Source of the DNA: a virus
Virus record (IMG/VR): IMGVR_UViG_3300025598_000024
Location: 1 to 64,000 of that record
Strand: one strand, 5' to 3'
DNA length: 64,000 bases
The notes under the pieces: generated by a model
Told to the model about the DNA's origin: nothing
The model's database searches: none
What the model saw: only the letters and a program-made list of their open reading frames with translations
Program-made: the position numbers and the translations under genes
Shown here: positions 2,227 to 58,003 of the stretch, in pieces
Position numbering within the stretch: the stretch's first letter is position 1
How the letters are laid out: each line of letters opens with the position of its first letter

Positions 2227-3177
2227 ATGGCTGACAACAACACTCCCAACGAGTTGTTGCAAGAGTTCCTCGCTAACCCTTTGGGTATCAGCAAGGACAC
2301 CGCTCAGGCAACTGAGCAAGCAGTGCCAGAATCCGTCTCGACGCACACCGCCGTGACGGCAGCCCCAACCACCCCTACCAAGGAGTACACCATGGAGCGC
2401 ATCTCCTACAACCCCGACGACTTCGGCGGTATCCCCGAGCCCGAGTGCTGGCGTGACCTGCGTGACATCATGAACGCAGGTGTCAACAAGGTCTTCCTCT
2501 CAGGCCCCCCAGGAATCGGTAAGTCCTTCGCTGGCATGTACTTCGGTGATGTCAGCCGTGGTGTCGAGCGCATGAGCTGCACCGAGGACATGACCAGTGC
2601 CGACGTTGACGGCTTCATGGGCATCACCAAGGACGGCACCTTCGACTGGCGTTACGGTGCTGCTAGCCGTGCCTGGATCAACGGCAGCCGTCTCATCATC
2701 GATGAGATCGACAAGGCTGGTAGCGATGTGCTCGCCAAGCTGTTGGCGTTCACCGACTCAGCTATGTCAGCTCGGTTTGTGATCGTTGCCACCGGCGAGA
2801 CCATCGTGCCTGCACCTGGTTTCTCCGTGGTGATGACCGCCAACATCACCAACATTGACGAGCTTGACTCGGACGCGCTCAAGGACCGTTTCCCTGCGCA
2901 CATCCAGATCAACGCTCCTCACCCGTCAGCTCTCATGCAGTTCCCTGAGAGACAGCGGATGTTGGCTGCCACGCTGATCAGCTCTCGTGCTGGTAACCTC
3001 AACGGTTACAGTCAGCGTGTGTCGCTGCGCAAGTTCGAGTACTTCAACCAGCTTCTTGCTGACCCGGCATTCGACCTTGACCGTGCTGCTGCGCTTGCGT
3101 TCGGTCCTCAGCTTGCTGAGGAGATCGTCCGTCACCTGCGCCTCGGCCTGCTCAACACCGGCGAAGTCAGCTTCTAG
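2227..3177 (+). CDS. MoxR/CbbQ-like AAA+ ATPase
   Basis: Walker A GPPGIGKS, Walker B LIIDEIDK, TAN sensor, ALKDRF arginine finger; GGAGG RBS. Confidence 0.9.
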   Translation: MADNNTPNELLQEFLANPLGISKDTAQATEQAVPESVSTHTAVTAAPTTPTKEYTMERISYNPDDFGGIPEPECWRDLRDIMNAGVNKVFLSGPPGIGKSFAGMYFGDVSRGVERMSCTEDMTSADVDGFMGITKDGTFDWRYGAASRAWINGSRLIIDEIDKAGSDVLAKLLAFTDSAMSARFVIVATGETIVPAPGFSVVMTANITNIDELDSDALKDRFPAHIQINAPHPSALMQFPERQRMLAATLISSRAGNLNGYSQRVSLRKFEYFNQLLADPAFDLDRAAALAFGPQLAEEIVRHLRLGLLNTGEVSF

Positions 3178-3179
3178 TC

Positions 3180-4709
3180 ATGGCTAGCGAATCTAACCCG
3201 CAAGAGCCTCGGATCACGCCACTACCCAACGTAGTTGCGTCATACCGTGAGGATCTTGACCCGTCACTGCAGTGGGAAGTTGTTCCCAGTGTAGGTGACT
3301 TCAACACCGGTGTAGACTTCGCTAAGGGAATTGTGTCTGTCCCCCTCTCGGGGGACGACCATTCCCGGCTGGTTCGGCTGCGTGAGATGGTGCGTCTTCG
3401 TATCGCACCCACTGACGACAAGCTGTTCAAGCACATTGCAAGTAAGCATGGGGGTATCGTTACTGAGCACACGCTACGGCTTGCTGACCTCGGTCGTATC
3501 AACGCTGTCACTCGTCAGTATGCTGAAGCATTCGAGATTCCAATCGAGCCTGACGGCAGCGAGAAAGTTCTTGGCAAGCGGTTGGCTACCACCAACACGC
3601 CTCAAGCCTGGAACAAGTGCGTCGAGTTCACCGCTCAATACTTTGGCACCAAGGCGTTCGACAGCTTTGCTTCTGGCGTGCGCAGTGTCAACAGTGACTG
3701 GAGCAGTGGCTTGCGCAAGCTAGCCAAGGAGCTCAGTAGCTCATTCGATGACGACGTTGAGTCCATCGGTAACACTAAGCGTTTGAACTACGGGGATGAT
3801 GTCTACGGTCCTAGTGGTTTCAATCACTCAGTGTACGCAGCCAGTAGTATTGCCAACTACATGGCTGATGGTTATCGTGCTCCGCAACAGATCCGTCAGG
3901 AACTTGCTGAGAGCGAGGACAACCGTGCTAAGAACTACGGTGAACAGGATCCGGAAGAGATCCTGCGTGGTTACGAGCGCATTGATCCCGAGAGCCAGCT
4001 TGACACCAGTGACCTGCCTGATGACTTTGAGTTCATAACAGATCCTGATGAAGATGAAGACAGCGGCGACATATTCGGCCCTCTCATCTTCAATCACGAG
4101 CTGCCTCTCACCGTCGAGGTCAAGGGCTACATGGCACGCAAGCGCCGCGCCAACATCATTGGTCGCAGCATTGTGTACCCCAGCCGTCGTTACACTGACC
4201 CTGAGATGCGCATGTTTGCTAACAAGATGCGTACAAAGGGTGGTATCTACCTGCTGGATGTCAGTGGTAGTATGCACGTGGATCAGGATGACATTGAGGC
4301 TATCGTTGATGTTGCGCCTGCAGCTCTCATCATGGCTTACAGTGATCCTGACAACGGCGGCGGCCTGCCAAATGCACACATCCTGGCCAAGCGTGGCTGG
4401 CGTGTTAAGGGCTTCAAGGACGTGCAGCGTGGTGGCAACGGTGTCGATGGCACTGCTCTTACCTGGGCTATCCGTCACAAGAAGCCTGGCGAGGACATCG
4501 TCTGGGTTACTGACGGCCAGGTGTTCGGCATCCAGGGTTACGGTGGTCACGACCTGTCCATCCAGTGTGCCAAGCTGGTCAAGAAGCACCGGATCATCAT
4601 GATCCCCAGCATGCGCGAGGCCATCGCTGCTTGCAGGACTGGTAAGCCAATGCGTCAGTTCAACAAGCCATCTGGTCGCGTGCGCGACGCCCTGCTCGGC
4701 AAGTACTAA
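3180..4709 (+). CDS. vWA-domain partner of the AAA ATPase
   Basis: MIDAS DVSGSM, GGNG, VWVTDG; directly follows the MoxR-type ATPase. Confidence 0.8.
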   Translation: MASESNPQEPRITPLPNVVASYREDLDPSLQWEVVPSVGDFNTGVDFAKGIVSVPLSGDDHSRLVRLREMVRLRIAPTDDKLFKHIASKHGGIVTEHTLRLADLGRINAVTRQYAEAFEIPIEPDGSEKVLGKRLATTNTPQAWNKCVEFTAQYFGTKAFDSFASGVRSVNSDWSSGLRKLAKELSSSFDDDVESIGNTKRLNYGDDVYGPSGFNHSVYAASSIANYMADGYRAPQQIRQELAESEDNRAKNYGEQDPEEILRGYERIDPESQLDTSDLPDDFEFITDPDEDEDSGDIFGPLIFNHELPLTVEVKGYMARKRRANIIGRSIVYPSRRYTDPEMRMFANKMRTKGGIYLLDVSGSMHVDQDDIEAIVDVAPAALIMAYSDPDNGGGLPNAHILAKRGWRVKGFKDVQRGGNGVDGTALTWAIRHKKPGEDIVWVTDGQVFGIQGYGGHDLSIQCAKLVKKHRIIMIPSMREAIAACRTGKPMRQFNKPSGRVRDALLGKY

Positions 4710-53027: not shown

Positions 53028-53701
53028 GGTGCGACCCTACCATTCTCGTTCCATGCCTCGTATGTTACCGGCATGGCTTGTTTAAAAAACTCTTCGACAG
53101 CACGAGCATAGTCCTGAATCTCCTGTTGTGCATGCCGCTCTGCTCTAAGGCTCAAGAACGCCATCAATGACCTGGCGTTCACTGTCCAGATCCATTCAGT
53201 GTATGCGTTCACTGGCAGTACAATGCGTGCCAGCTCTGGTGCTACCCCACATGCTAGCAGAGTTTTGTAGCCCTGGAATGCACTGCTTGACGCTGAGTCA
53301 ATCAGCCCTGCGATAGCAGGTTCATTCATGACTTCGTACTCGTAGGCTCCTGGCTTGCCAACACGCTTGCGGATGTGATCACGGTCAGGAACATAGTAGC
53401 CCATGTCGATCTCGGTGTAACGACCGCTCACCTCATTGAATGAGTTGCCAATACGATGACGGATCCATTCCCTGGCCACAAAGATTGGCAGGCGAACACA
53501 GAACTTGAAGTAGGTGTGTTCGAATGGTGAACCATGCCGGTTACGCATAAGGTAACCGATCAGTTTGTCATCGCCAGGTTCCATCTGTTCATGGCTGGTA
53601 TGGAAAGACACGCGTGCAGCGTTAACCACGTCCAGGTCACTGGCACTGCTGTCTAACAGTGTGACGAACCCATCGTTATGTACTTTGATTGTATTTTCCA
53701 T
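53024..53701 (-). CDS. thyX: flavin-dependent thymidylate synthase
   Basis: H.SPFEH, REWIRHR...NEVSGRY, ARIVLP, HAQ.EI. Confidence 0.95.
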   Translation of the reverse strand: MENTIKVHNDGFVTLLDSSASDLDVVNAARVSFHTSHEQMEPGDDKLIGYLMRNRHGSPFEHTYFKFCVRLPIFVAREWIRHRIGNSFNEVSGRYTEIDMGYYVPDRDHIRKRVGKPGAYEYEVMNEPAIAGLIDSASSSAFQGYKTLLACGVAPELARIVLPVNAYTEWIWTVNARSLMAFLSLRAERHAQQEIQDYARAVEEFFKQAMPVTYEAWNENGRVAP

Positions 53702-53777
53702 GGAGCCGAGAGTGGGATTCGAACCCACGACATCTTTATTACAAGTAAAGCACTCTGACCAACTGAGCTATCTCGGC
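53701..53777 (-). tRNA. tRNA-Thr(TGT)
   Basis: cloverleaf, loop CTTGTAA, encoded CCA. Confidence 0.92.
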
Positions 53778-53782
53778 GGGTG

Positions 53783-53855
53783 TACCCCTGGCACGAATCG
53801 AACGCGCAACCTAGTGGGTAGAAACCACTTGCTCTATCCATTGAGCTACAGGGGC
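53783..53855 (-). tRNA. tRNA-Arg(TCT)
   Basis: cloverleaf, loop TTTCTAC. Confidence 0.88.
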
Positions 53856-54039
53856 ATATTCTAGTGGGTGATGTCATGCTCCTTGTCGAACTGCTTGTGA
53901 ATCTTCTGCCAGATCCGTTTACGACCCAGGTAGTAACCCAGTGTGAACACAATGATCTCTTCTATCACACTCACAATGCTTTCCGCAATCAGATGATTGG
54001 GATCGGTGAGAATGCTCCACCAGGTCTCGTGATGCATGG

Positions 54040-54279
54040 CTAACTCCCTGTGTCGTAGATGTTATCGCTGATCCCGTTCTGCCGCAAGATCTCGATTGCC
54101 TCATAGTAGTACGGGTTGCTCATCACACTAGCAGCCGGTGCTGCTGTCTTCAACACACTCTTCACCCACATCTTGTTAGCGTCATAGTTTACGAATGCAT
54201 CGATCAGCTTGGGCTGTACCGGTACCTTGGCCAGTTCCAGGATGATCCTTGCTGCCCATCGTATATCTTTAGTTGTCAT
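54040..54279 (-). CDS. hypothetical protein
   Basis: GGAGG RBS. Confidence 0.65.
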   Translation of the reverse strand: MTTKDIRWAARIILELAKVPVQPKLIDAFVNYDANKMWVKSVLKTAAPAASVMSNPYYYEAIEILRQNGISDNIYDTGS

Positions 54280-54290
54280 TGTTACCTCCG

Positions 54291-54333
54291 TACCCTGAGG
54301 GGGACTTGAACCCCCACCCCATGGAGTATACCA
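54291..54333 (-). pseudogene. 3' half of a split tRNA (Leu-type)
   Basis: variable arm, T-arm GGGGG-TTCAAGT-CCCCC, acceptor TCAGGGT-A. Confidence 0.8.
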
Positions 54334-54783
54334 TTATTTTTTCTTGTGTGCTGCTGTTTTCAATGCATGGCAGTTAGGGCACAAAATTTGTAAGTTCTCC
54401 AAAGAATTATCAAAATGATCACTGTTGATATGGTCTAGCTCTAGCGGTGCTGGTTGCCCCAACCATTCTGTTATCCCACAGACCTCACAAATGGCTTCTT
54501 TAATACCCTCCTTGATAAGTTTTAACCTTAACTTCCCAGAATGGATTGGCTGCCTATTAGATAGGTACTCTTCGATATCAACTTTATTCCTGGCTGGTCT
54601 TCCTTTTGTAAAGCTTTTGCCAACAAAATGTGAGTAATCAATACCTGCTTTTACAGCCCTATTTTTTAAATGGGTTTGTGACCCAGTCATTGGTTTTACG
54701 CCTATTTTTCTGCATGTATCAGCCCATGTAGTAGATGAAGCCACTGCATCAGCCAACTGTTGATCTGTATATCTATGTTTCAT
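54334..54783 (-). CDS. HNH homing endonuclease
   Basis: CEVCG..W...PLELDHI...DN..ENL..LCPNCH. Confidence 0.9.
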   Translation of the reverse strand: MKHRYTDQQLADAVASSTTWADTCRKIGVKPMTGSQTHLKNRAVKAGIDYSHFVGKSFTKGRPARNKVDIEEYLSNRQPIHSGKLRLKLIKEGIKEAICEVCGITEWLGQPAPLELDHINSDHFDNSLENLQILCPNCHALKTAAHKKK

Positions 54784-54837
54784 GTATACTATAACACCAC
54801 GTATACACTTTTACATTGTTTACATTGTTTTATATTG

Positions 54838-54921
54838 TGCCCCCGGTCAGACTCGAACTGACAAGACCTTACGGTCATTACCTCCTAAGGGTAACGTGTT
54901 TACCTATTTCACCACGGGGGC
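54838..54921 (-). tRNA. tRNA-Leu(TAG)
   Basis: cloverleaf with long variable arm, loop CTTAGGA. Confidence 0.9.
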
Positions 54922-54926
54922 ATATC

Positions 54927-54961
54927 AAACCTGGCGCGTCTGCCTATTCCGCCATCAGGGC
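54927..54961 (-). pseudogene. 5' half of a split tRNA (Leu-type)
   Basis: GCCCTGA-TG-GCGGAATAGGCAGACGC-G-CCAGG-TT; acceptor complements the 54291-54333 fragment. Confidence 0.8.
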
Positions 54962-54965
54962 TCTG

Positions 54966-55039
54966 TGCCCCAGGTGGGATTCGAACCCACACTACAAGGA
55001 TTTTAAGTCCTCCTCCTCTGCCTGTTGGGATACTAGGGC
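54966..55039 (-). tRNA. tRNA-Leu(TAA), short variable arm
   Basis: cloverleaf, loop CTTAAAA. Confidence 0.88.
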
Positions 55040-55044
55040 TTCTG

Positions 55045-55126
55045 TGGGCCAGGTAGGATTCGAACCTACGTAGCTTTACGCGGCGGTTTTACAGACCGCT
55101 TCCTTTGGCCGCTCGGACACTGACCC
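55045..55126 (-). tRNA. tRNA-Tyr(GTA)
   Basis: cloverleaf, loop CTGTAAA. Confidence 0.92.
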
Positions 55127-55137
55127 ATTCTACTGCG

Positions 55138-55211
55138 TCGGAATGACAGGATTCGAACCTGCGACATCTGCGTCCCAAACGCAGCGCTCTACCAAGCTGA
55201 GCTACATTCCG
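55138..55211 (-). tRNA. tRNA-Pro(TGG)
   Basis: cloverleaf, loop TTTGGGA. Confidence 0.92.
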
Positions 55212-55221
55212 TATACTGTTG

Positions 55222-55292
55222 TCCTCCTGGAGGGTACCGCCCCCTCTTTTCAGGATTAAAAGTCCCGTACATCACTTTAATGTTTCAGGAGG
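55222..55292 (-). tRNA. atypical tRNA-Lys(TTT)
   Basis: all four stems pair, loop CTTTTAA; non-canonical T-loop GGCGGTA, A8, no D-loop GG. Confidence 0.65.
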
Positions 55293-55770
55293 TTAAATAT
55301 TCTTCTATTGATTCTTTCTTTTTTTCATACCATCCTAGTCTGATGTTGCAACTATAGCACAGTAACCCTCTAACGCTACCAGTTTTGTGATCGTGATCAA
55401 CACAAAAGTTTTTACCAGTAGAGCACCTATCGATCTTGCATATTCCACAGCGATGGTTTTGACCCTCTAGCATACTGTAGTAATCAGCAATAGTCAAACC
55501 AAATTTTCTAGTAGCAGATTTTATATTAAAACAATTTCTACAATATGCATTTTTATTGTTATCACCTTTGTAGGCACCACAGTATAAACATGGTTTTGGT
55601 GATGGTACATAACTGGAGTACCTAACTGAATGCTGTGCTCTAGCTGCGCAGCTTTGAGAACAGTATAATCCTATATTCTTTTTTACTTGATAGGCATATC
55701 TTTTATATACATTGCTACAGTCAGTTCTACTGCATATTACTTGCTCTGATGTTCTAGTAGTCATAGTCAC
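55285..55770 (-). CDS. endonuclease VII-family HNH nuclease, probable homing endonuclease
   Basis: YCS..C N-terminus; Q...CGIC...VDHDH.TG.VRGLLC..CN..LG; AT-rich. Confidence 0.85.
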   Translation of the reverse strand: MTMTTRTSEQVICSRTDCSNVYKRYAYQVKKNIGLYCSQSCAARAQHSVRYSSYVPSPKPCLYCGAYKGDNNKNAYCRNCFNIKSATRKFGLTIADYYSMLEGQNHRCGICKIDRCSTGKNFCVDHDHKTGSVRGLLCYSCNIRLGWYEKKKESIEEYLTS

Positions 55771-56145: not shown

Positions 56146-56147
56146 TT

Positions 56148-56783
56148 CTACCAACGCCCCGGTTCATAATAGTTAAAAAGAACTGCGATATCATCACAGT
56201 ATATCACGTTCTCTTTGGTTTGATAAGCAATAACCTCATCTATAAATATACCATCACCCGATGGGTGAAGCGGTACCCTGAACTGTTTGAGAATCTTTCC
56301 AGTCAGAAAGATCTGTTCAATACTAACATGATCTCTCCTGGCCGACTCAGGGGTTGCGTTAAGACGTGTCGGAGGGTGAGCGCTCTCTGGTGCATGACCT
56401 TCAGGCAGCCTGTACCCTCTTTCCATTGCTGTGATAATAACGTCAGATGCTTTACCCTGTGACTTGACAAGATTTATTCTGTCTGCTAGGTCTTTGAAAA
56501 ACGTAGGGTCGTATGCATCATCATCATTTAAAAAGCACCAGTACTCATCGTCTTTAACATGATTAGCAATAAACCAATTTAATGACGTGTTGCTACGCGC
56601 CCAAAATTCTGTTGCATCATTGGGGCAACGATACGATATAATCCAGTCCTCATCGAACTGAAGACCAAATCCAAGATCATCATCAACTATTACGTGCCAG
56701 ATAACGTCATGCATACTGAGCATATGTTTTAGAAGAGGTATGTTTTTGAACCTCATCATTGGCGTTACAACATTAAAACGCAT
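56148..56783 (-). CDS. GT-A (GT2-like) glycosyltransferase
   Basis: VVTP..R...W.V..D...FLNDDD...DG.F. Confidence 0.7.
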   Translation of the reverse strand: MRFNVVTPMMRFKNIPLLKHMLSMHDVIWHVIVDDDLGFGLQFDEDWIISYRCPNDATEFWARSNTSLNWFIANHVKDDEYWCFLNDDDAYDPTFFKDLADRINLVKSQGKASDVIITAMERGYRLPEGHAPESAHPPTRLNATPESARRDHVSIEQIFLTGKILKQFRVPLHPSGDGIFIDEVIAYQTKENVIYCDDIAVLFNYYEPGRW

Positions 56784-58003
56784 CAGTGCCCGATGATCTC
56801 AAACTTTGGGCAAGGCACAATAAACTTGCCACCATCCCGCAAGTAATCCTGTTCACGCGCCACAAATTCATTGATGAAGTGCCATGGTAATACCAGCAGG
56901 TAGTCGGGCTTGGCTGCTCGCATCTCTTCTTCACTGTAGATAGGGATCTCAGTGCCTACCGTCTTCAGGCCAAACTTGTAGTGGCTACGCTCAGCGATAC
57001 CATCAATAAGAGTGTGATCTAGACCAAAGTATTGTAGAAGGGTGTTACCCTTGGTGCTTGCACCATAACCCCAGACGGTCTTGCCCTCAGCTTTTGCCTG
57101 CTTGATAAAGCTATAGGTCTGCTCCTTGAGATCCAGCAAACGCTGATAGAACTCGCTCCATACTTCAGGAGTGTTATACCCCTTTGCTTCTTCATACTCT
57201 AGCAATGAGTTGACACGGTAGTTGCACACATCACGGTATGGTTGAGTACCAAAGCGTGTGATATCAGCTCCACTCTTCATGGCATAAACACGGAAAGAAC
57301 CACCGTTGATATCATTCAGCTGAGTATCTATGATCTGAAAACCGTTCTCATTAAACAGTTTCTTTATCGATGCTAGCGAATGATAGTACAGGTGCTCATG
57401 ACAAATATTATCAAAAGCCATCTGCTCAATCATGAGTGGTGTGTAGCTCATCTGCACAACCAGCAGTCCATCATCATTCATGACGCTGGCAAGGTCCTGT
57501 AGAAATACGTCAGGGTGCTCCAGGTCATAAAACATTGCAATGATAGTAACCACGTCAGCCTTGGTGTGACCAAGGGGCGAGTTGCGATATGCTTCAGCAG
57601 AAAAATAATCCTGAATAATCAGATCAGCATGATGTGAGGACTCTGCCTTGAACGTGTCATCTACCGGATCGATACCAATTCGGGTATATCCACCAGGAAC
57701 AAAGCTGAGCAGGGTGCCATCATTACAAGCGATATCTAGCCACACAGGTGATTCAGGCATCTTGTATGTTGAATGAATAGACTCTACAATGCCCTTAAGC
57801 TCATTAGTCATTGTTGCATTAATGCCAGACCGGTACCAGTAGCGACCATACATAAACTCGCCGGGTGTTACTTCTTCCAGCCGTGCAGCCTTACGTTGTT
57901 CATCAAACACCATCTTTAGACCGACGCGACCAGCACGGTAGTCTTCACCAGGCTTGACGAAGTCTGATACGTACAATTCACCTAGGTCGAATAGTTCTTT
58001 CAT
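56783..58003 (-). CDS. NDP-hexose C-methyltransferase
   Basis: LDIACNDGTLL, FDNICHEH, GGS.R, YGASTKGNTLL, LPWHF. Confidence 0.9.
   Translation of the reverse strand: MKELFDLGELYVSDFVKPGEDYRAGRVGLKMVFDEQRKAARLEEVTPGEFMYGRYWYRSGINATMTNELKGIVESIHSTYKMPESPVWLDIACNDGTLLSFVPGGYTRIGIDPVDDTFKAESSHHADLIIQDYFSAEAYRNSPLGHTKADVVTIIAMFYDLEHPDVFLQDLASVMNDDGLLVVQMSYTPLMIEQMAFDNICHEHLYYHSLASIKKLFNENGFQIIDTQLNDINGGSFRVYAMKSGADITRFGTQPYRDVCNYRVNSLLEYEEAKGYNTPEVWSEFYQRLLDLKEQTYSFIKQAKAEGKTVWGYGASTKGNTLLQYFGLDHTLIDGIAERSHYKFGLKTVGTEIPIYSEEEMRAAKPDYLLVLPWHFINEFVAREQDYLRDGGKFIVPCPKFEIIGH

Follow-up and report, generated by a model that had tools for sequence, protein, structure and literature searches.

A phage tRNA-Leu gene interrupted at its anticodon loop by a tRNA-Leu(UAG) gene and a free-standing HNH gene, probably through an intron-less insertion

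How can a phage transfer RNA (tRNA) gene come to hold, between its two halves, both a second and complete tRNA gene and a gene for a homing endonuclease, with no ribozyme to splice them out? The question is raised by a locus in the IMG/VR virus record IMGVR_UViG_3300025598_000024, a 105-kb record that is ∼71% complete and of which positions 1 to 64,000 were analyzed here as one stretch (the window, 64,000 nucleotides). All elements of the split locus read on the minus strand. The 5′ half of a tRNA-Leu gene (54961–54927; 35 nt, positions 1 to U34; found by ARAGORN with long introns allowed) is followed by a 5-nt filler, GATAT (54926–54922), by a complete inner tRNA-Leu(UAG) gene of 85 nt with a long variable arm (54921–54837; ARAGORN, and Rfam tRNA at 59 bits), by a 53-nt spacer (54836–54784), and by a full-length free-standing HNH homing-endonuclease gene of 149 amino acids (54783–54334; Pfam PF01844), whose stop codon TAA directly precedes the 43-nt 3′ half (54333–54291). 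This nested anatomy, including the stop codon that abuts the 3′ half, had been proposed in a sequence-only reading of the window, and each of its parts was recovered at those positions on the minus strand. The explanation that best fits the locus and its relatives is that the tRNA-Leu gene was probably split after U34 by the intron-less insertion of a two-gene module consisting of tRNA-Leu(UAG) and the free-standing HNH gene.

The first step is to establish that the halves are parts of a single gene. The 5′ half is made up of the acceptor strand GCCCTGA, TG (including U8), a 3-bp D-stem, a Leu-type D-loop of the form usual in bacterial-type tRNA-Leu, G26, CCAGG, and TTT, and it ends ..CCAGGTTT, after U34, which is the intron site of the HNH family described below. 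The 3′ half consists of TGG, a 15-nt variable region, the T-arm GGGGG/TTCAAGT/CCCCC with a perfect 5-bp stem, the acceptor strand TCAGGGT, and A73. The complementarity of GCCCTGA and TCAGGGT noticed earlier holds at 7/7 pairs, six of them Watson-Crick and one G1-U72, and ARAGORN, when long introns are allowed, calls a single tRNA from the two halves, with 599 nt inserted after base 35. A degenerate pattern of the first 27 nt of the 5′ half was scanned against metagenomes and matched at least 120 stretches, nearly all of them intact tRNA-Leu genes; among the matches listed, several tRNA-Leu genes carry the GCCCTGA/TCAGGGT pair including G1-U72, and none of those with this acceptor has the anticodon stem CCAGG. 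In a genome scan, one tRNA-Leu(CAG) gene of a Treponema metagenome-assembled genome unites the same acceptor 5′ strand and the T-stem in a single gene. The G1-U72 pair is seen again in phage tRNA-Leu(UAA) genes at four loci of the HNH family (L004, L006, L148, and L151) and is therefore a trait of the family and not a sign of decay. The two halves thus belong to one Leu-type tRNA, and their pairing is beyond chance. As a separate candidate, TGGTATAC after the HNH stop codon was considered as the D-loop remnant of a downstream tRNA, on the pattern of locus L003, and was rejected, since the end of the open reading frame (ORF) gives no acceptor strand complementary to TCAGGGT.

The anticodon arm is the part that has suffered. 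Its two sides lie 593 nt apart and part of its 3′ strand is missing, with 3/5 anticodon-stem pairs (CCA/TGG) and positions 35–40 absent when the gene is read with a long variable arm, and with 4/5 pairs in the short reading of ARAGORN, whereas the intronic members of the family keep 5/5 pairs with ..CTT|AAAATCC... When 480 junction combinations of the halves were tried, ARAGORN accepted 169, with many different anticodons, and the test confirms the cloverleaf frame and cannot recover the original anticodon. The retained U34 and the family context indicate that the broken gene was most likely a tRNA-Leu(UAA).

The position of the break, after U34, is also that of the group I introns of the HNH family, and the window was examined for such an intron with two kinds of search. 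Rfam RF00028 gave no match at E ≤ 10 in the region 53500–55500 and no match anywhere in the 105-kb record, and a custom intron-core profile, built from four introns of the HNH family itself, gave no match in the window while finding cores in 33 other loci at E < 1e-5. A whole tRNA and a full-length ORF already take up the available space. A group I intron in the window is ruled out by these searches, and the earlier claim that the insert sits in the gene without splicing agrees with an insert that has no ribozyme.

The HNH protein, of the His-Me finger type, matches PF01844 over residues 99–143 with E 1.1e-7 and a score of 32.3 bits, where the cut-off is 21.4. Eight residues, C99, C102, H118, N130, C135, N137, C138, and H139, which include two zinc-binding CxxC pairs, are invariant across 25 family members, and the C-terminus NCHALKT.. 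is native to the family. The gene is intact and its catalytic residues are conserved, so that a nuclease activity is predicted. Homologues numbered 726 in the size range searched, with more than 522 relatives in IMG/VR; an identical HNH protein (P0001) is encoded on 10 contigs, and P0002 is 69% identical. The 53-nt spacer ahead of the gene (54784–54836) contains AACAATGTA repeated in tandem and a pair of GTATAC palindromes, of which the second stands directly before the HNH ATG. Within this spacer there is no Shine-Dalgarno sequence and no hairpin stabler than shuffled sequence (z −0.27), and a search for promoters and terminators upstream of the gene gave no signal above chance. As a side observation, GTATAC palindromes at 54326–54331, 54784–54789, and 54801–54806 bracket the HNH ORF, one of them lying 2 nt past the stop codon; the motif occurs in 16 copies across the 64-kb window, and GGTATAC stands at each edge of the HNH insert in L003.

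The surroundings in which this HNH family is found elsewhere carry much of the argument. A census was made of 69 distinct loci besides the window (labelled L and a number), drawn from the best 80 of more than 522 IMG/VR family loci, and ∼60 of the 69 directly adjoin a tRNA-Leu gene or its halves. The arrangement classes overlap, as some loci are counted in more than one. The HNH start lies 49–126 nt downstream of an intron-less tRNA-Leu(UAA) at 28 loci, a layout also seen in the cultured Synechococcus phage S-CRM01, and just downstream of a tRNA-Leu(UAA) with an ORF-less group I intron of ∼200 nt at 12 loci. The gene lies within the tRNA-Leu(UAA) intron in sense orientation ahead of the core at 6 loci, and in antisense between the two core halves at 4 loci; at 13 loci an intact tRNA, in most cases Leu, has its 5′ end adjoining or overlapped by the HNH stop codon. 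Altogether, at 22 of the 69 loci a group I intron stands after U34 of tRNA-Leu(UAA) and the HNH gene lies within it or just downstream. For example, the exons of L004 (2914–3672) join as ..AGGGACTT|AAAATCCCT.. (..GACTT|AAAATCC..), i.e., U34|A35, and its intron core matches Rfam Intron_gpI at 67.8 bits. The introns of L148, L205, and L206 are likewise above the Rfam cut-off, and intron cores in L151, L167, L204, L208, L220, and others were detected by the custom profile. The census therefore supports an association of the HNH family with tRNA-Leu genes and with the anticodon-loop intron site, and the earlier description of the window gene as part of a selfish element is borne out to the extent that the gene is intact and its family has these ties.

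The census also bears on whether the inner tRNA and the HNH gene could have arrived together, as the sequence-only reading had supposed. A tRNA 4–126 nt upstream of the HNH gene is the commonest arrangement in the family, and the 53-nt spacing in the window fits it; the pair is for this reason a plausible unit. In a maximum-likelihood tree of 67 HNH sequences, the window protein falls in a clade (support 97/90) with L145, L146, L150, and L174, to which L185 is sister. The HNH genes of these five loci are free-standing and wedged between tRNA genes, none of them intronic, and in the clade of the window an intact tRNA-Leu often comes immediately after the HNH gene.

Breakage of tRNA genes by members of this family is not confined to the window. 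Family loci were scanned for orphan T-arms with an acceptor strand that forms 7/7 pairs with a 5′ half lying upstream of the HNH gene, and besides the intronic loci this gave three split tRNAs that lack a ribozyme, those of the window, L002, and L201. A database search for the order half-tRNA, tRNA, HNH, half-tRNA had been proposed earlier, and L002 shows exactly this order: a 5′ half (2773–2809), 98 nt, a complete tRNA-Gln (2908–2979), an HNH gene (3001–3708) read with TAG as a sense codon, and a 3′ half (3707–3741) that the HNH stop codon overlaps, with no Rfam intron at E ≤ 1. In the tree, L002 groups with the free-standing L005 (100/98). The simpler order half, HNH, half occurs in L201 (1921–2846), where the 5′ half is followed by 45 nt and by an HNH gene of 273 amino acids whose last 13 codons enter the 3′ half; neither an inner tRNA nor a ribozyme (E ≤ 10) was found there, the exons make up what looks like a whole Leu(CAA) tRNA with a proper anticodon loop, broken between positions 33 and 34, and the HNH protein is unresolved among the intronic members of the tree. 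L201 could have arisen by a recent insertion or by decay of an intron, or its tRNA could be spliced by unknown means; it may well be a decayed intron. As an observation apart, the HNH genes of L002 (3001–3708), L005 (3001–3711), and L060 have in-frame TAG codons whose positions are conserved, as would fit TAG-recoded phages, and each of the three has a tRNA-Gln-like gene ∼20 nt upstream.

Lone remnants of tRNA genes accompany other members. In L172 (2700–2756), the HNH stop codon TAA doubles as the TAA anticodon in an orphan 3′ half of tRNA-Leu whose first base is A35, the intron site, and no matching 5′ half was found within 700 nt; in L183, an orphan 3′ half similarly abuts the HNH stop codon. 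Orphan tRNA 5′ fragments lie upstream of the HNH gene in L003 and L197. The fragment in L003 (2896–3487) is 24 nt of one tRNA-Leu, and the last 10 nt of the HNH ORF there, including its stop codon TAG, form the acceptor 5′ strand and positions 8–10 of the next tRNA-Leu(UAG). Since split tRNAs and lone remnants recur in this way, the breaking, displacing, and resupplying of tRNA-Leu sequence is a habit of the family.

A close relative shows what has since become of the locus. One lineage alone, represented by IMGVR_UViG_3300025381_000016 (L022) and by the metagenome contig Ga0007819_1000003 (L030), is closely related, with 99.9% identity to the window over the 1345 nt upstream. This sister phage shares the 5′ half, the filler, the inner tRNA, and the 3′ half with the window, and it is without 436 nt (window 54800 to ∼54365), so that the start of the HNH ORF is gone and its last 31 nt remain. 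Its 3′ half differs from that of the window at four bases within 10 nt (AT>GC at 54322–54321 and GG>AA at 54314–54313), with just one further difference across the 800 nt that follow, and the GG>AA change turns the T-stem strand GGGGG into GAAGG and breaks the stem. As the sister shares the split, has lost the HNH gene to a deletion, and has a broken T-stem, the split is older than both phages, the HNH gene is not essential and is in the course of being lost, and selection does not maintain the 3′ half as a tRNA. The broken T-stem also means that the split tRNA-Leu gene is dead. As a side observation on the same pair of phages, the sister has 1.6 kb of unrelated sequence in place of a 211-amino-acid ORF of the window at 56148–56783 (window 56146–56798 versus L022 953–2570), and further upstream the identity falls to 81%, with a mosaic boundary that adjoins the tRNA array.

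The intron-less insertion can be pictured as follows. During co-infection, the HNH endonuclease would cut an intact tRNA-Leu gene near the anticodon loop, and repair of the break from the HNH-bearing genome would copy the module in, about six bases (positions 35–40) being lost here in the process. The interruption would then shield the locus from renewed cutting. The phage might tolerate the loss because phage tRNAs are dispensable and other Leu tRNAs are kept, namely the cargo Leu(UAG) and the adjacent Leu(UAA). Such an element would behave like a mobile intron whose splicing part was lost or never present.

The identity of the cargo bears on the earlier proposal that the element supplies a replacement for the tRNA that it breaks. 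A complete tRNA-Leu is indeed carried, and to that extent the proposal stands; it reads CUN codons, whereas the broken gene was probably UAA. A like-for-like replacement finds no support, as a separate Leu(UAA) gene lies 4 nt upstream of the 5′ half and the cargo of L002 is a tRNA-Gln. That neighboring gene (55039–54965, minus strand; ARAGORN and Rfam) is 75 nt long with a short variable loop, unlike that of canonical bacterial tRNA-Leu, and it has ∼75% identity with the short tRNA-Leu(UAA) genes found ahead of the HNH family in other phages. It contains the intron-site consensus of the family without interruption (GGACTTAAAATCC; GGACTT|AAAATCC). The same 4-nt spacer, CAGA, precedes both this gene and the 5′ half, which places the 5′ half in its native position in the array.

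Several points weigh against an intron-less insertion. An intact allele in related phages had been named in the sequence-only reading as one way to check the claim, and none was found in IMG/VR with four patterns, an exact gapped pattern, a 24-mer of the 5′ half, a 37-mer of the neighboring tRNA, and a loose acceptor/T-stem pattern, which returned nothing or the sister phage alone; a search for relatives through the 79-amino-acid ORF and ThyX proteins likewise led to just the one lineage. The sister has the same split, and its HNH-less state is an internal deletion and not an empty target site. Because no relative with an uninterrupted tRNA is at hand, the case for insertion comes from parsimony and from the family and not from direct observation. 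In addition, the Leu(UAA) gene of the window itself keeps the intron-site consensus uncut, and therefore either the HNH endonuclease prefers another sequence or this gene is kept from cutting. The break coincides with the family intron site, which would also fit descent from an intron; the right junction is without about six bases; and the source of the GATAT filler is unexplained. Finally, the nuclease activity of the HNH protein and its target are putative, being predicted from sequence.

The principal alternative starts from that coincidence. A tRNA-Leu(UAA) with an HNH-bearing group I intron after U34 would have lost the intron core by deletion, and the tRNA-Leu(UAG) would have come into the 5′ part of the former intron. 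Such a decayed mobile intron would account for a 5′ half that ends exactly at the family intron site, ten members of the family are encoded within introns, and L201 resembles a core-less allele in which the 5′ half is 73 nt away from the HNH gene, a spacing as in the intronic loci. Against this, the window has no trace of a core and its HNH protein groups with free-standing, non-intronic genes, and the scheme requires both a core deletion that ends exactly at the stop codon and a separate insertion of a tRNA at the 5′ splice site. A tRNA followed by HNH is already the standard free-standing module of the family, and for that reason the insertion of a single module needs fewer steps; decay from an intron is accordingly judged unlikely.

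A second alternative, which appears quite improbable, would have the tRNA-Leu(UAG)-HNH pair flanked at first by two complete copies of the same tRNA-Leu, each of them cut at the anticodon loop and repaired with a deletion, so that a 5′ half was left on the left side and a 3′ half on the right. The orphan 3′ halves at the HNH stop codon in L172 and L183 and the orphan 5′ fragments in L003 and L197 are remnants of the kind that it predicts, and the frequent succession of HNH and intact tRNA-Leu in the clade of the window would give it a starting point. It calls for a duplication and two deletions where one insertion suffices, and neither the window nor the sister phage has a tandem copy.

The last alternative is a split tRNA that still works, its halves or its entire transcript being processed and united as RNA through some unknown pathway, in which the inner tRNA might, for instance, act as a processing signal. 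In favor of it are the intact acceptor, D-arm, and T-arm of the window and the two L201 exons, which both appear whole and give a proper anticodon loop. Such a rescue is nonetheless very improbable, given that the 3′ strand of the anticodon stem and positions 35–40 are missing, that the best spliced form is a 73-nt chimera with the anticodon UAC and one G-A mismatch, that neither RtcB nor an Rnl2-type RNA ligase was detected in the record (a search of the record for an Rnl1 ligase was also empty, but so was its control search), that the T-stem of the sister phage is broken, and that inspection revealed none of the complementary leader and trailer sequences that bring the halves of archaeal-type split tRNAs together, the 5′ half being followed by GATAT and the inner tRNA and the 3′ half being preceded by the A-rich end of an ORF.

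If the locus did arise by intron-less insertion of the tRNA-HNH module, it need not stand alone. A broader and more tentative proposal, which we place a little short of an even chance, is that the window belongs to a recurrent and undescribed class of ribozyme-less ‘cut and replace’ cassettes of HNH gene and cargo tRNA that home into the anticodon loop of phage tRNA-Leu, and that this class is a sibling of the HNH-bearing group I introns in phage tRNA-Leu(UAA), with a cargo tRNA instead of splicing to offset the cost. The cargo tRNA may lessen the cost of the element.

The rest of the array contains further tRNA genes and a second nuclease cassette. On the minus strand, tRNA-Pro (55211–55137) and tRNA-Tyr (55126–55044) precede the intact tRNA-Leu(UAA), and beyond the 3′ half the array continues with the 79-amino-acid ORF, tRNA-Arg, tRNA-Thr, and thyX. 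In the same array and on the same strand, a 27-nt tRNA 5′ fragment (GCCCCTGTAACTCAGTTGGTAGAGTGA, 55838–55812) lies just upstream of an ORF of the Endonuclease VII family (55770–55285), which is followed by an odd tRNA-like sequence (region 55222–55770). In another phage tRNA array, that of L010, a full-length ROOL RNA is present at 896–1476 (Rfam RF03087, 324.7 bits), together with a match to a hepatitis delta virus (HDV)-like ribozyme at 2050–2118 that is below the cut-off (34 bits).

The usual view of homing endonucleases is that they persist either within introns or inteins, which hide the insertion, or between genes. The endonuclease gene of the window sits inside a gene without anything to splice it out, beside a spare tRNA. 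One and the same family shows every stage, beside an intron-less tRNA-Leu, beside an intron-bearing one, inside an intron in either orientation, and inside a tRNA gene without an intron, and this series makes the long-discussed joining and parting of free-standing endonucleases and introns directly testable. Phage tRNA arrays counter host defenses that cleave tRNAs (PMC13096335; PMC11464382), and elements that reshuffle, break, and resupply phage tRNAs therefore bear on the conflict between phage and host.

How, then, does the locus compare with systems already described? The nearest precedent is SegB of T4, a free-standing GIY-YIG homing endonuclease in a phage tRNA cluster, which recognizes a conserved motif of tRNA genes and spreads together with neighboring tRNA genes (PMC2330249). 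Like the window gene, SegB is a free-standing endonuclease among phage tRNA genes; it differs in belonging to the GIY-YIG and not the HNH type, in recognizing the T-psi-C region and cutting the 3′ ends of tRNA genes, and in lying between tRNA genes without splitting any (PMC2330249). Other endonuclease ORFs are known within a phage tRNA cluster, as in the window, but they have not been reported inside a tRNA between its halves or as carriers of a tRNA.

The classical comparison for the insertion point is the group I intron of cyanobacterial and plastid tRNA-Leu(UAA), located between U34 and A35 (Xu 1990; Kuhsel 1990; both as cited in PMC3984707). The type of gene and the insertion point are the same as in the introns of L004, L148, L205, and L206 and at the end of the 5′ half in the window; the classical introns carry no endonuclease gene, whereas the window has no ribozyme and cannot splice. 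A known bacterial homing endonuclease resembles the HNH family in targeting the anticodon region of a tRNA gene, but it is encoded within an intron that still functions, comes from another enzyme family, and is not phage-borne. According to a 2014 review, the phage introns known at that time all lay in protein-coding genes (PMC3984707), and a literature search of incomplete coverage found no paper on phage tRNA genes with HNH-bearing introns or with HNH insertions that lack an intron. The association of the HNH family with tRNA-Leu is new, as is the finding that HNH-linked group I introns occur commonly in phage tRNA-Leu genes.

The relation between endonuclease and target is closest to that in collaborative, or trans, homing, in which a free-standing endonuclease stands beside an ORF-less intron, as T4 mobE does with the I-TevIII intron (PMC2790892). 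The 12 family loci at which an intron-bearing tRNA-Leu(UAA) has the HNH gene just downstream match this arrangement, where interruption of the target site gives immunity. Another case of collaborative homing is S-PM2 psbA. In the window, by contrast, the endonuclease module itself interrupts the target, so that immunity costs a gene.

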